A stretch of 64,000 nt of DNA. Origin: Candidatus Binatia bacterium. Its GTDB lineage: Bacteria; Desulfobacterota; Binatia; Bin18. A program made the position numbers and the translations under genes. Numbering within the stretch: position 1 is the stretch's first letter; every line of letters starts with the position of its first letter. Positions 38,587-50,775 of the stretch are shown one piece after another. The DNA lies in NCBI GenBank assembly GCA_963664395.2, contig OY761159.2, positions 864,001 through 928,000 on the forward strand. The letters are read 5' to 3'. A model generated the notes under the pieces. It worked only from the letters and a program-made list of their open reading frames with translations, ran no database searches and was not told the DNA's origin.

Positions 38587-38591
38587 GGCGA

Positions 38592-38675
38592 TGCCGGGAG
38601 CGAGACTCGAACTCGCACGCTGTCGCCAGCGGTGGATTTTGAGTCCACTGCGTCTGCCAATTCCGCCATCCCGGC
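38592..38675 (-). tRNA. tRNA-Leu (anticodon CAA), CCA not encoded
   Basis: GCCGGGATGGCGGAATTGGCAGACGCAGTGGACT-CAA-AATCCACCGCTGGCGACAGCGTGCGAGTTCGAGTCTCGCTCCCGGCA; long variable arm, T-loop TTCGAGT. Confidence 0.95.
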
Positions 38676-38840
38676 ATACGGGGGATATTAATGACTGAGG
38701 TGCAGTACCTGAGTCGTATCCAAAAAAGTCGTGCGGAATCTTACCCTCCAATCCGGCGTTCTGGCAAGCCCGTTCCGAGGTCGGTCGCGTCTCAGTTTCG
38801 CAGCCCCCTTCCCCTCGGTCGGCACGGTCCCTCTCCTACT

Positions 38841-38880
38841 TCCCCTCTCGGGAGGGGTGCCGCGCAGCGGCGGGGTAGGT
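38841..38880 (+). repeat. REP-like element (left arm of a doublet)
   Basis: TCCCCTCTCGGGAGGGGTGCCGCGCAGCGGCGGGGTAGGT; near-identical copy at 44761. Confidence 0.85.
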
Positions 38881-38888
38881 TCTACGGA

Positions 38889-41800
38889 GGGAATTATATA
38901 CGATAGTGCCGAAAGGATGGTTCACCGACCCAAGCTCCGATTCCAGCTTTGTTTTCGGGCTTCTGAAGTCGGCAGCCAGCCTCAAGAACCCACGCACCCT
39001 TCACAGCAATGAACGCTGCCGCGCGTCAGCTTTGCCGCCTTTGCTCTTGCGCTTTACGTCGAAGGCGCCGGCGGTGCGCAGGGTGTCGGCGCTAATGAGC
39101 GGACCGTTGCAGATGCGGGTGAGAAGGTCGGCTTGGCGACTTTCCAGGGCGACCAGACGGCCCAGGACATGGAGTACATTCAGGAGTTCCGTCGTGTATT
39201 CAGCGATCCAGCGGTCCGGCTGGATTTTCTCCAGGGGTGACGGGGGCCGCTTTTCACCGATGACGGGTCGTGTGCGGTCCTTCTTGCGGTAGCTGAACCA
39301 GTGGACCAGCACCTGCTTGCCCGAAACTTCGTACTGCCAGACCTCTGGCGGTACGTTGTCGATGAAGCCCTCACCCACCAGCAGGCGGCGCTTCCCGGCG
39401 TCATAGTCGATGCGGTCGGGCATCCGCTCCGGGTCGGGGGGGATGGTGCCGTCCCTGGGAATCCGCGGTCCTTCGCCCTTGGGCATCCGAGGCGCGCCGG
39501 CAGGTCGGCCGCTGGACGGGTCGGCGTATCGTTCGCCGAAGGTGTGCAGCCAGATTACCGCTTCGCCCAAGGCGACGGCTTCCGCGAAAAGGCCGGCGTC
39601 TCGGGTGAGAGGCAGGCGCAAGCCGGGTTGTACCAGATCGTCTTGAAAGCGGCGGGTGTAGCCGAGATGCGCCATGACAGCAGCCAGATAGGCCATGACC
39701 TGTTGACCGCAGACCGGCGTGCCAAGCTGCTCTGCCAGACAATCCAGGAAAGCCCCCTTCACGTTTGAAGCGGCGGCTTGGTTGTCGGCCCAGAGCGGAA
39801 AGACGCGCCCACCGCGCCCGTGATAGTGGTCGATGTCGCAGATTGAGGCGGTGAAGGTGACGCCAGGACCGCTTCTCGGAGAGGACTGGTGTAGGGCCGT
39901 TAGGAAAACCTGCTCGTCTGAGAAGCTTTCCCAAAGGGTTGGATTTGGCCGATTGATGATGCGGCCGTCCGGGATGATCCACTGCCGGTCAAACGACCGA
40001 AAGCCGTATCTTGTCGGGACGATACATTTCCCTGTGTCGGTCGCCACTGAGTTGGAGCGGAATTCGTGCCCATAGAGGCCGCTCTTCAATGGCTTGTTCA
40101 CATGCTTGTCACCGGGCTTCCCATTCACAAGATGAGGGTGAAAAAGTTCCTCCTTTTTGGAGGCGTCTGGCTCTTGCAGCAAAGCATCCCAGCGCGCTTC
40201 GAGCGATTGCTTGTCCGGGGCGATCACCCACACCCTGCCCGGCATCACGCCGGAGCCGTTGTATGTGAAGATGTCCTCTAAAGGCACAAAGTCGCCCCAA
40301 GCGCCTGTCGCCTTGGGCAGAAACGACGCGCGCGGCTCGTCCGGGCACGCGACCCAGCCGTCGTCTTCGAGGGAAATGCCGGCGAAGGCGGCGAATTTGT
40401 CCTCGCGGGTCTTGCCGTCCAGGTTGCGATAGCGAACCCGCGCGGGTCCGGGCGCCGCGGTTTGGCTCTTGCGCAGGGCCATGACGATGCAGACCGGTTG
40501 CTGAACCCCCTGAAAGACGCGGCTGCGAACGGGCGGCTGGTGGCCTTCCGGCGAGCAGTCGATCACCCAGATTTCGTCCGCCTTGGCCCGCAGGTCGGCG
40601 CGCATCTTTTGAAAGCCGGGGCCGTTCAGAAAGCCGGCCGCGGTGATGAAGCAGATAATGCCCGTCTGGTCGCGTTGCCGGCCTTTCTGCTCGGCAGGGT
40701 CGCCGTCGCCGAATACCTTCCAGGTGGCCCAGCGCCAGAAGTACACGTAGAGGTTGCGGAGGTGCTTGGCGTGCGCTCCGACGTTCCATTCGAGCGGCGG
40801 CATCCAGTCCGTGAGTGGTGCGGGTCGGTTGTCGCTGCCGTTCTCCACCCAGCCGCCCAGCCCCTTGGCGTTGGCCTTGTAGGGCGGATTGCCGATGACA
40901 ACGGTGATGCGCTCCTGCCGTTTGATCCGATTCGCTTGGCGGCGCGATTCGCCCAGCGGCATGAGGATTTGCGGGATGTGTTCCTCCTCGACGAACGGGT
41001 TGCCCAGGGTGTCGGTGACGAACAGGCGCATCGGGTCGGACCTGCCCGCAAACGCCTCGCCCGCAAGTTCCTTCAGCTCGGCCAGCAGGCGAAGCTGGGC
41101 CACCGCGAAGGGTCCAAGCTGTATCTCGAACCCGATCAGCCGTGGAATGGCGGCTTCGATCACCCCCGGAACCGCTCCCGGCCCTTGATCCGCTTCCGTC
41201 GTTTCGGCGATGCGCCGCAGCACACCCAGGAGATAGGTGCCGGTGCCGGTGGCCGGGTCCGCCACGGTCACGTCCGGCGAGGCCAAGCCTTCCGTCAGGC
41301 CAAAGTAGGCACTGGATTTCAGCGCTTCATCGACCAGCCGCACCATCGACATGACGACTTCCGGTAGAGTGTAGTACGACCCCGTCTTGCGCCGCAACTT
41401 GCTGTCGTAGGTGGTGAGGAACTTTTCGTAGAAGTAGAGCCACGCCTCCGGGTCGCCCTTGCTGATGACGTCCCAGTGCACGGCGTCCAGCACGCGCGTC
41501 AGGGTGGCCAACGAGGTTTTCAGGGGTTTCTGGTTTTCGGCGTCGTCGGTCAGGAGGCGCAGCGCCGTACCGATCAGGGTGTTGGTCTGGCGTAGCTCAT
41601 GGGCCACGCGGTCGAGGCCGTCGCTGAGGGTGATCTTGCGTGCCCGCGCCATGAGTAGCCCGAAAGTGACGGCCTGAGCGTAGCCGTCGGCAAAGGCTTC
41701 GTTCGTCGCGCTGGGGAACAGCAGCCTGCGCCAGTCGGTGGCGAGGTTGGTGAGCGGGCCGGAGCCCTGGTCCAGTTGCTCGGTCACTTCCTCACGTAAC

Positions 41801-42450
41801 AACCGGCAGAGCCGGGCCGTCAATTCGGCCAGCGCGGGTGCTGATTTCGGCGGTTGTGGCTGCCATTGGAAGAAGTCGGAGAACAAGCCCGGCAGGCTGG
41901 ACGGGGCCGTCAGCTTGGCGGCGGCGGTTTTGATATCGCCGTCGAGCGTGATGACTTTCCCTTCGATATCGCCGTTGCGCCACAGGCTGAAGGCGTTGCC
42001 GTCGGTATAGATCAGGTTCGGGAGGGTTTTCAGCTTCTCCCACTGTTCCCGGTCGTGCTTGTCGGTGAAGCGCCGGGGGTCCGCGCCCTTGCCCGGCGCT
42101 TTGACCTCGATGAAGCCCACCAGCGCCGCGTTGAGCGTGATCGCGTAATCGGGCCGCGTCTTCAGATCGGCCAGCGACGTCTCGCCCACGGCCACGATTT
42201 TGTCGCTCGGCAGACCGAGGAACTCCGCGATGTCGGAGATCAACCCTTCAAGCGGCGCTCTGAGCTGATCTTCGGGCGCGCCCGAAACCGCCGCGTTGCT
42301 GAGCTTGGCTTTTGCCCTGCTGCCGAAATCCGAGATAATCGCGTCGAGTGCCTTTCTCAAAGCCCTCACCACCAAGTCCTGCTACTTGAGTTGCTTGCCA
42401 TCCATTCCCTGGGCCGCCGTCACCATTTGGCACTATCGTATATAATCCCC
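38889..42450 (-). mobile_element. Non-autonomous IS1595-family-like cassette carrying an R-M gene
   Basis: TIRs GGGAATTATATACGATAGTGCC (38889-38910) and GGCACTATCGTATATAATCCCC (42429-42450), 21/22 identical; 8-bp direct repeat TCTACGGA at 38881-38888 and 42451-42458; no intact transposase. Confidence 0.88.
39001..42375 (-). CDS. Single-polypeptide restriction-modification enzyme (N-terminal PD-(D/E)xK nuclease, m6A methyltransferase, type ISP/IIG-like specificity domain); start may be TTG 42360
   Basis: RPDYAI...GFIEVKAPG; YFYEKFL...GSYYT; DPATGTGTY; VIGNPPY; NLYVYFWRWA; RYGFRSFDRQW. Confidence 0.88.
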   Translation of the reverse strand: MVVRALRKALDAIISDFGSRAKAKLSNAAVSGAPEDQLRAPLEGLISDIAEFLGLPSDKIVAVGETSLADLKTRPDYAITLNAALVGFIEVKAPGKGADPRRFTDKHDREQWEKLKTLPNLIYTDGNAFSLWRNGDIEGKVITLDGDIKTAAAKLTAPSSLPGLFSDFFQWQPQPPKSAPALAELTARLCRLLREEVTEQLDQGSGPLTNLATDWRRLLFPSATNEAFADGYAQAVTFGLLMARARKITLSDGLDRVAHELRQTNTLIGTALRLLTDDAENQKPLKTSLATLTRVLDAVHWDVISKGDPEAWLYFYEKFLTTYDSKLRRKTGSYYTLPEVVMSMVRLVDEALKSSAYFGLTEGLASPDVTVADPATGTGTYLLGVLRRIAETTEADQGPGAVPGVIEAAIPRLIGFEIQLGPFAVAQLRLLAELKELAGEAFAGRSDPMRLFVTDTLGNPFVEEEHIPQILMPLGESRRQANRIKRQERITVVIGNPPYKANAKGLGGWVENGSDNRPAPLTDWMPPLEWNVGAHAKHLRNLYVYFWRWATWKVFGDGDPAEQKGRQRDQTGIICFITAAGFLNGPGFQKMRADLRAKADEIWVIDCSPEGHQPPVRSRVFQGVQQPVCIVMALRKSQTAAPGPARVRYRNLDGKTREDKFAAFAGISLEDDGWVACPDEPRASFLPKATGAWGDFVPLEDIFTYNGSGVMPGRVWVIAPDKQSLEARWDALLQEPDASKKEELFHPHLVNGKPGDKHVNKPLKSGLYGHEFRSNSVATDTGKCIVPTRYGFRSFDRQWIIPDGRIINRPNPTLWESFSDEQVFLTALHQSSPRSGPGVTFTASICDIDHYHGRGGRVFPLWADNQAAASNVKGAFLDCLAEQLGTPVCGQQVMAYLAAVMAHLGYTRRFQDDLVQPGLRLPLTRDAGLFAEAVALGEAVIWLHTFGERYADPSSGRPAGAPRMPKGEGPRIPRDGTIPPDPERMPDRIDYDAGKRRLLVGEGFIDNVPPEVWQYEVSGKQVLVHWFSYRKKDRTRPVIGEKRPPSPLEKIQPDRWIAEYTTELLNVLHVLGRLVALESRQADLLTRICNGPLISADTLRTAGAFDVKRKSKGGKADARQRSLL

Positions 42451-42474
42451 TCTACGGATAGGGCGTACCTGGGG

Positions 42475-42516
42475 AAACCCACCCCGACCCTTCGGGCCAC
42501 CCCTCCAGGGAGGGGA
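42475..42516 (-). repeat. REP-like element (right arm of the doublet)
   Basis: AAACCCACCCCGACCCTTCGGGCCACCCCTCCAGGGAGGGGA, inverted relative to the 38841 copy. Confidence 0.8.
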
Positions 42517-42536
42517 TTTGCTGATCCGGCCGAACG

Positions 42537-44713: not shown

Positions 44714-44760
44714 GACACTCCTCAGCCATGCTCCCCTCGCTCGGAGGGGAGCAAAACACA

Positions 44761-44805
44761 TCCCCTCTCGGGAGGGGTGCCGCGAAGCGGCGGGGTGGGT
44801 TCCCC
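44761..44805 (+). repeat. REP-like element
   Basis: TCCCCTCTCGGGAGGGGTGCCGCGAAGCGGCGGGGTGGGTTCCCC. Confidence 0.85.
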
Positions 44806-44869
44806 CATTCTACACGGTATAAACACTCCGGCTCATCCAAAACCACAATAACAACAAGACGCCTCGGAC

Positions 44870-50676: not shown

Positions 50677-50775
50677 GGGAACCCACCCCGCCGCTGCGCG
50701 GCACCCCTCCAAGGAGGGGAGTTAAGGCAAGGGGAACCCACCCCGCCGCTACGCGGCACCCCTCCAGGGAGGGGA
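50677..50775 (-). repeat. Two tandem REP-like elements, inverted relative to the 44761 copy
   Basis: GGGAACCCACCCCGCCGCTGCGCGGCACCCCTCCAAGGAGGGGA (50677-50720) and GGGGAACCCACCCCGCCGCTACGCGGCACCCCTCCAGGGAGGGGA (50731-50775). Confidence 0.85.

Follow-up and report, generated by a model that had tools for sequence, protein, structure and literature searches.

How does a gene for a restriction-modification (R-M) enzyme come to lie alone between the ends of a transposable element that has no transposase? The question is raised by a 64,000-nt stretch of a Candidatus Binatia genome (the window; genome G000, 5.04 Mb in 14 contigs, 95.9% complete), in which positions 38889-42450 (contig C1:902889-906450) form a compact unit of this kind. 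We conclude, with a probability of roughly 0.85, that the unit is a non-autonomous derivative of the insertion sequence (IS) family IS1595, namely a mobile insertion cassette with an intact Type IIG R-M gene as its passenger, moved by an IS1595-type transposase acting in trans. Such a cassette would have kept only the two transposase-binding ends, its interior being the one passenger gene. An IS1595-type DDE transposase from another element would recognise the GGGRATTATATAC... termini, excise or copy the unit and insert it via an 8-bp staggered cut, here into the spacer of an inverted doublet of repetitive extragenic palindromic (REP)-like units, 200 bp from a tRNA-Leu gene.

Each element of the unit was reread in the sequence, and the outline given by a preliminary description of this DNA held: 3562 bp lie between two perfect 8-bp target duplications and are bounded by 22-bp terminal inverted repeats that are identical at 21 of 22 positions, the one change giving GGGGATT... 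on the cargo 5' side (Table 1). The 22-mer repeat pattern occurs twice in the window but in none of 100 dinucleotide-preserving shuffles, and a weak likeness of both ends extends to about 26-28 nt (GCCGAAAGG versus GCCAAATGG). The ends, GGGAATTAT and GGGGATTAT, fit the GGnnATTAT motif, which we take to be that of the ISNwi1 subgroup. Inside the unit is a single open reading frame (ORF) of 1124 codons, counted from a TTG start; the database copy of the protein starts two codons downstream (1122 aa). The ORF fills 3375 of the 3562 bp (94.7%, estimated earlier at about 95%). The unit is also transposase-less, as had been proposed, since tblastn with four IS1595 transposases as queries gave no match within it. 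The G+C content of the cassette is 63.2%, compared with 57.2% for the window.

From its sequence and its structural model, the cargo is predicted to be a full-length Type IIG (Type IIL-like) R-M enzyme with nuclease, methyltransferase and specificity regions in one chain, in line with the complete enzyme described previously. The PADLOC model REase_MTase_IIG (PDLC03631) covers residues 13-1104 with 1315 bits. The AlphaFold2 model (pLDDT 88.7, pTM 0.79) has the Type IIL enzyme DrdV as its top fold match in the PDB, over the full length (E 1.5e-37), followed by the methyltransferase-specificity halves of LlaBIII and LlaGI and then by PglX, BpuSI and MmeI. The cargo belongs to a family of 1680 representative clusters (E <= 1e-30). 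In an alignment of 44 members with 31-57% identity, with which the N-terminus of the cargo agrees, D76, E90, K92, D373, P374, G377, P497 and P498 are invariant, and N496 and Y499 are conserved at 90% or more. The Pfam match to N6_Mtase is weak and that to Type_ISP_C strong. By sequence, the protein also matches the methyltransferase parts of LlaBIII, LlaGI and DrdV, the matches to the first two being confined to query residues 313-652. An assignment to Type ISP was rejected on three grounds: no Pfam helicase family was detected, the protein has 1124 aa as against 1406-1578, and LlaBIII and LlaGI are matched in their methyltransferase part only. Because it has no helicase motor, the cargo is better placed as Type IIG/IIL-like. 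With DrdV, MmeI and BpuSI it shares a PD-(D/E)XK nuclease, a gamma-class N6-adenine methyltransferase and a C-terminal specificity domain, although it is only 16-19% identical to the DrdV chains in the structural alignment; with the Type ISP enzymes it shares the methyltransferase-specificity half and the Type_ISP_C domain, but not their helicase-like motor.

Most likely, the putative enzyme would methylate its sites in the host genome and cut incoming DNA in which they are unmethylated. It may also stabilise the cassette selfishly, as the preliminary description had held possible; because restriction and modification reside in one polypeptide, the classical addiction model of differential decay would not be directly transferable. 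It is unlikely that the cargo is methyltransferase-only, decayed or regulatory rather than a working restriction enzyme, which would leave the unit no defence cassette. Although no promoter was found, Pfam scores the methyltransferase region low and NCBI labels some of the relatives simply as 'N-6 DNA methylase', the nuclease triad and both methyltransferase motifs are intact and conserved across the 44 relatives, the ORF is open at full length in G000, G006, G041, G025 and other genomes, and both the Type IIG model and the DrdV fold are matched over the full length.

The transposase-less unit has moved between loci. A second copy, 92% identical, likewise without transposase and with both repeats, lies at another locus in the congener G006, where it is flanked by a perfect duplication, TCCGTGGA, inside a CCCC-TCCGTGGA-GGGG hairpin; its leader and subterminal sequences are the same as those of the window's cassette. 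In G000 the orthologous site (C1:3203400-3203540) shows no interruption and contains only one TCCATGGA. The cassette is present at the tRNA-Leu(CAA) locus in none of nine congener loci examined: in seven of them no more than 26 bp separate the tRNA-Leu(CAA) side from the downstream gene, and in the remaining two 214-281 bp of other sequence intervene. Contigs from each of the four sequencing runs compared span one or both of the filled junctions (both in X16 and X19, only the right one in X21 and X1).

At 80 genomic loci encoding R-M homologs, the repeats were found twice, in G006 (both repeats) and in G041 (one). The G041 gene, 88% identical and at a third locus, has only the 3'-side repeat left, in degenerate form, together with the same subterminal GCCGAAAGGAT. 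In the protein tree its sister is a repeat-less copy in G025 (100/99 support), and the G041 and G025 copies share a locus that is orthologous to C1:1.73 Mb of G000. The cassette form is thus ancestral to the copies in G000, G006, G041 and G025; it moved at least once after the transposase was lost, probably twice, and it decays through loss of its ends. Two further observations concern these loci. In G007, about 9 kb lie between the tRNA-Leu and the downstream gene (C1:2067343-2076557; L166), which seems to be another insertion at the same site. Contig C4 of G000 nearly duplicates C1:1.729-1.737 Mb, including a transposase fragment, and both match the G041 flanks at near-equal identity; this may reflect strain heterogeneity or an assembly duplicate, fitting the contamination estimate of 5.4%.

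These copies also bear on the possibility that the unit is a dead remnant, that is, an IS with transposase and cargo that lost the transposase in place and never moved afterwards, so that the repeats record only the insertion of its ancestor. Decay of this sort does occur: the genome has no intact cognate transposase, fragments of the clade lie elsewhere, and the element at C1:2831462-2834524 keeps a C-terminal transposase stub beside its cargo. However, the same transposase-less structure, leader and subterminal sequences recur at the G006 locus with a different perfect duplication, and each of the two genomes is empty at the site occupied in the other. Without movement after the loss of the transposase, the same transposase-less form at two loci would call for an identical deletion to have happened twice, and we regard a remnant that never moved as quite unlikely.

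Autonomous elements with identical ends exist in metagenomes. Scanning public metagenome contigs for GGGRATTATATACNATAGTGCC returned 19 loci, five of which (L168, L173, L178, L182 and L184) are complete pairs with the exact 22-mer (22/22 identity with the window's unit) and perfect 8-bp duplications, namely AAAAATTT, AAATTTAA, TTTTATTT (twice, for the same element) and AAAAGATT. They encode an intact transposase with a DDE_Tnp_IS1595 domain (E 1e-39 to 1e-41) and a Zn ribbon and, downstream and co-directional with it, a different R-M system each (Table 1). Their duplications are AT-rich, and they lie on unrelated contigs without REP context. The three Type II elements have unrelated methylases, and in all of them the start codon of the methylase shares an ATGA with the stop of the transposase gene (L168 10762-10765, L178 1906-1909, L182 1177-1180), forming a co-directional operon of transposase, methylase and restriction genes (tnp-M-R).

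Related elements occur within the genus, which we sampled with 28 genomes: the 22-mer is present at up to 2 mismatches in 10 and a transposase of this kind (E <= 1e-20) in 18 of them. Elements in G041, G018, G012, G004 and G042, whose ends are identical to those of the window's unit at 20-21 of 22 positions, have intact IS1595 transposases (NCBIfam transpos_IS1595, 185 bits) and perfect duplications. In total, 13 distinct insertions of the end family have perfect 8-bp duplications. The transposases that accompany these ends are 61-88% identical to one another, and at least five unrelated R-M cargoes are found with the ends (MT-A70/BglII-like, Eco29kI, Dam-like/Type II, Type III Mod/Res and Type IIG); a more distant branch has methyltransferase-HNH fusions as cargo. 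Both expectations of the preliminary description about the ends were therefore borne out: IS1595 transposases share them, exactly over 22 nt in L168/L173, L178/L184 and L182 and at 20-21 positions in the congeners, and other defence genes are carried between them, the cargo found being three Type II systems and a Type III system along with methyltransferase-HNH fusions, a HEPN protein and a T5orf172 protein. Beyond these sources, the unit ends had no match in viral contigs and, at up to 1 mismatch, none among 400 other genomes of the phylum (253 other genera searched), and the cassette had no match in a plasmid collection.

Several side observations were made on these relatives. A promoter-like TTGAC-N17-TAnAAT block between repeat and transposase start is common to L168 (9727-9790), L178 (890-960), L182 (144-210), L185 (13030-13095) and L170 (340-400). 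Its -10 element overlaps a second inner-repeat motif, (C)AATAGTGCC, which is inverted in L170, and this sequence arrangement suggests that the transposase of the autonomous elements may repress its own promoter. Since homology to repeat-less copies of the cargo gene begins about 13-16 bp into the ORF, a fusion of the window's ORF to a transposase leader and first codons was considered; it was rejected, the 53-bp leader having no TTGAC-N17-TAnAAT block that overlaps a second ATAGTGCC motif. The mosaics, found in two species (G018 and G012), combine a pair of IS1595 transposases with an IS1-like transposase, a P63C protein and matrixin-like proteins, and their interiors are rearranged relative to each other. 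G001 has two copies (L059 and L060, each at 1001-2486) of a second kind of cassette without a transposase, bounded by family ends and the duplication TCCTTGGA, whose sole cargo is a 451-aa HEPN_Apea protein.

A family of related ends, GGGRATTATATACnAynkTRCCC, is also present in G000 itself, several of them paired (Table 1). Two of the paired elements have contents of their own to record. The one at C1:635254-638384 (L009 1001-4131), outside the window, is an autonomous IS1595 element of 3131 bp, in which a 311-aa transposase is followed after 8 bp by a co-directional 501-aa N6_N4 methyltransferase-HNH nuclease fusion; at the ends of the element we saw no 8-bp duplication that matched. The one at C1:2831462-2834524 (L013 1001-4063), 3063 bp long and with family ends, holds the C-terminal transposase stub, an unassigned 245-aa ORF and a second methyltransferase-HNH fusion of 497 aa that is 36% identical to the first.

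Table 1 Features of the window (positions without prefix), paired ends in G000 (prefix C1) and related elements in congeners and metagenomes.
Feature	Position or locus	Strand	Basis or content
tRNA-Leu(CAA) gene, conserved left landmark of the locus	38590..38676	-	ARAGORN; conservation 100% across many congeners
Left REP-like unit, CCCCTCtcggGAGGGG hairpin plus tail, half of inverted REP doublet	38841..38881	+	64 BLAST hits to left flank in genome
Target-site duplication, left copy TCTACGGA	38881-38888	.	Read directly
Terminal inverted repeat, cargo 3' side, GGGAATTATATACGATAGTGCC	38889-38910	+	Read directly; identical 22-mer ends transposase-bearing metagenome elements
Cargo P0001, predicted single-polypeptide Type IIG R-M enzyme, 1124 aa	39001..42375	-	PADLOC, AlphaFold2, fold match
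Specificity (target recognition) domain, C-terminal, aa 701-1065	39181..40275	-	Pfam Type_ISP_C, E 2.2e-68
N6-adenine methyltransferase region, about aa 315-700; D373-P374-x-x-G377 (motif I), N496-P-P-Y499 (motif IV)	40276..41433	-	Pfam N6_Mtase; alignment; matches to LlaBIII/LlaGI/DrdV
PD-(D/E)XK nuclease region, N-terminal, about aa 1-170; D76/E90/K92	41866..42375	-	Triad invariant in 44 sequences
Terminal inverted repeat, cargo 5' side, GGGGATTATATACGATAGTGCC read inward	42429-42450	-	Read directly; pattern scan
Target-site duplication, right copy TCTACGGA	42451-42458	.	Read directly; perfect match to left copy
Right REP-like unit, in inverted orientation to the left unit	42476..42519	-	73 BLAST hits to right flank in genome; sequence comparison
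Paired ends	C1:2796489-2799046		Perfect duplication ACCGCGAG
Paired ends	C1:1358106-1358834		Duplication 7/8
Paired ends	C1:2831462-2834524		Duplication 6/8
Paired ends	C1:791975-792961		
Paired ends, more distant	C1:635254-638384		
Congener duplications	G041, G004, G018, G012, G042		TCCGAGGA (G041), TCCGAGGA (G004), TCCAAGGA (G018), TCTGGAGT (G012), TCCCAAGA (G042); all perfect
Congener element	G041		Transposase + SLATT-like protein + T5orf172 / PDC-S57
Congener mosaic, 11.5 kb, family ends	G018 L052 1001-12700; G012 L053 1001-12483		Different perfect duplications (TCCAAGGA, TCTGGAGT)
Metagenome element	L168/L173		Transposase + MT-A70 methylase + BglII-like nuclease (Type II)
Metagenome element	L178/L184		Transposase + 238-aa protein + Eco29kI nuclease (Type II)
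Metagenome element	L182		Transposase + Dam-like methylase + Type II nuclease
Metagenome element, 6008 bp	L185		Type III Res and Mod + transposase; second end 20/22 identical, duplication 7/8

The surroundings of the unit are formed by REP-like sequences. These are units of about 45 bp with a CCCCTC-N4-GAGGGG hairpin and a tail; some stand alone and others form direct or inverted doublets, and BLAST gives more than 60 hits across the genome. Further units lie at 44757-44807 and 50677-50775 of the window (C1:908757-908807 and C1:914677-914775), and a weak Y1_Tnp match, perhaps RAYT-like (REP-associated tyrosine transposase), is located at C1:3119393-3119578. The genome contains 58 instances of the hairpin CCCCTCCNNGGAGGGG, compared with 0-1 for scrambled controls. 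Uninterrupted paralogous doublets are found at C1:447540-447670 and C1:2452815-2452935; they have a spacer of the same length as the cassette site and a similar octamer, for example TCCTGCGGA at the former, as expected from a simple insertion with an 8-bp duplication. Many flanks of family ends in the genome read CCCCTCCNNGGA followed directly by GGG, which corresponds to insertion into the loop of hairpin CCCCTCCNNGGAGGGG. Octamers of the form TCYNNGGA inside REP-like hairpins are preferred targets of IS1595 elements in this genus, which adds a further case of an IS family with REP hairpins as its targets. Directly 3' of the target octamer, the hairpin has GGGGATTT, which is similar to the opening 7-8 bases of the IS end, GGGGATTA (seen, for example, at 42505-42528 of the window and at L003 1490-1510), and the transposase may select targets that resemble its own ends. 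That the repeats are instead a by-product of REP palindromes or chance, around an ordinary chromosomal R-M gene placed by REP-associated (RAYT-type) recombination or homologous exchange, is very improbable, for while the cassette does lie between two inverted REP units, in a genome with this many hairpins and with a weak Y1_Tnp match, the 22-mer lies outside the REP unit, it ends transposase-bearing metagenome elements that have AT-rich duplications and no REP context, it was absent from all 100 shuffles, and a duplication of 8 bp is the mark left by a DDE transposase and not by a Y1 enzyme.

Several results weigh against a mobile insertion cassette moved in trans. An intact cognate transposase was not found in this genome, where the clade is present as C-terminal fragments only. 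The sole intact IS1595 transposase of the genome (C1:637405-638337, inside element C1:635254-638384) shares only 43-45% identity with the clade that accompanies the ends of the cassette, and the ends of its own element, GGGACTAATATACTTGAC, differ from these, with 11 of 13 terminal bases shared. The intact transposase of G006 comes with inner repeats that differ as well. The 53-bp leader and first codons of the cargo gene are unlike the transposase leaders of the autonomous elements, which bears on the route by which the transposase was lost. A promoter scan, which is little informative for this phylum, recovered no sigma-70-like promoter upstream of the ORF within the unit. A clean empty site with a single TCTACGGA was not found at the tRNA-Leu locus, and the congeners also have no REP doublet there. 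Joints that skip the cassette were seen in read contigs of four runs (38881 to 42476 and 38882 to 42472, with 19 letters between); they were rejected as empty sites, the 19 letters being the spacer of the paralogous doublet at C1:2452815-2452935. Finally, the copies in G000 and G006 differ by 8%, so the moves are old.

Two points of the preliminary description stand in part. An empty site in relatives is supported by the adjoining flanks in seven of nine congener loci and by the empty G006 site in G000, but not by a clean site with a single TCTACGGA, and the joints met in the suggested check for empty-site reads turned out to be paralogous REP doublets. Mobilisation in trans is probable for the past and for the wider community, given the moved unit and the transposases with exact ends, and less so for this cell at present, as no intact cognate transposase was found in its genome. 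Because that clade survives only as C-terminal fragments and the one intact transposase is diverged and has different repeats, the cassette is probably stranded in this cell at present; the transposase that moved it would have belonged to another element with the same type of ends.

Mobile insertion cassettes are a known kind of element. The first to be described is reportedly MIC231, derived from IS231 of Bacillus cereus, by De Palmenaer and colleagues in 2004. The general definition, IS ends without a transposase around at least one passenger gene, made active by supply of a cognate transposase from elsewhere, is given in PMC3129680 and PMC3281130. The window's unit agrees in its IS ends, its missing transposase and its passenger gene, and differs from MIC231, a member of the IS4/IS231 family, in its IS1595 affiliation, its R-M cargo and its preference for REP hairpins as targets. 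No IS1595-derived mobile insertion cassette was found described in the literature searched, a search that did not extend to ISfinder. Siguier, Gagnevin and Chandler are said to have introduced transporter IS (tIS) of the IS1595 family in 2009. PMC3129680 and a TnCentral preprint report transporter IS, that is, IS copies with passenger genes, for IS1595 and IS66. The sister elements described here resemble them in transposase family, 8-bp duplications, short terminal repeats and passenger genes between the repeats, whereas the window's unit, unlike a transporter IS, has not kept a transposase of its own. IS1595 elements that carry R-M systems, or the tnp-M-R layout, were not found in the literature searched, though they may already be catalogued in ISfinder.

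The closest precedent comes from Furuta, Abe and Kobayashi (2010; PMC2853133), who describe transposase-less, transposon-like R-M units with inverted repeats and 8-bp target duplications, among them a Type II system of X. oryzae with 65-bp repeats and a Type IIG plus S system of N. gonorrhoeae with 26-bp repeats. These authors could put no name to the transposase and left it open whether the R-M proteins act themselves. The likeness covers the R-M cargo including Type IIG, the imperfect inverted repeats, the 8-bp duplication and the empty site in a relative; the difference is that the ends of the present cassette can be linked with IS1595 transposases and with sister elements that share them. 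The present case belongs to these known kinds and adds the identified transposase family, the autonomous relatives with identical ends and the recurrent R-M cargo.

The cargo gene also occurs without the ends. The relatives of the genome are Candidatus Binatia, and the sequencing runs that contain the sequence are mostly labelled as sponge metagenomes. Repeat-less copies that are 88-89% identical in protein and DNA are present in G025 and in two metagenome-assembled genomes (MAGs) labelled Candidatus Entotheonella (L066 and L067). Homology to the repeat-less copies spans 38931-42362 of the window; it begins about 13 bp into the ORF and runs on for 70 bp beyond the stop. The tree does not settle the order among these lineages. 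This level of identity suggests a recent cross-phylum transfer of the R-M gene between Binatia and the Entotheonella-labelled MAGs, and points to exchange among co-resident symbionts. Homologs of 60-75% identity were seen across many phyla, several of them with titles that point to sponge-associated bacteria; the loci behind these observations are L066, L067, L143 and others.

As to what this means for the IS1595 family, we give even odds to the idea that one transposon clade is a dedicated R-M vehicle, in which the cargo is swapped as a module while its coupling to transposase expression is kept, and of which the window's cassette is an end state. If so, the R-M gene would keep the ends alive after the transposase is lost, and REP hairpins would serve as harmless landing sites in this sponge-associated genus. 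The mobility of R-M systems is well known, and the vehicle has rarely been pinned to a specific transposase and its ends. An IS1595 lineage with varied R-M types, together with a minimal transposase-less cassette, would offer a concrete mechanism of R-M gene flow that lends itself to testing. The ends of this clade combined with 8-bp duplications suggest a search rule for further defence cargo, and the natural cassette, with 3.6 kb and one ORF, is compact enough to be usable for transposition and defence assays. Shared ends with different restriction systems inside would be one route by which bacteria trade defences.

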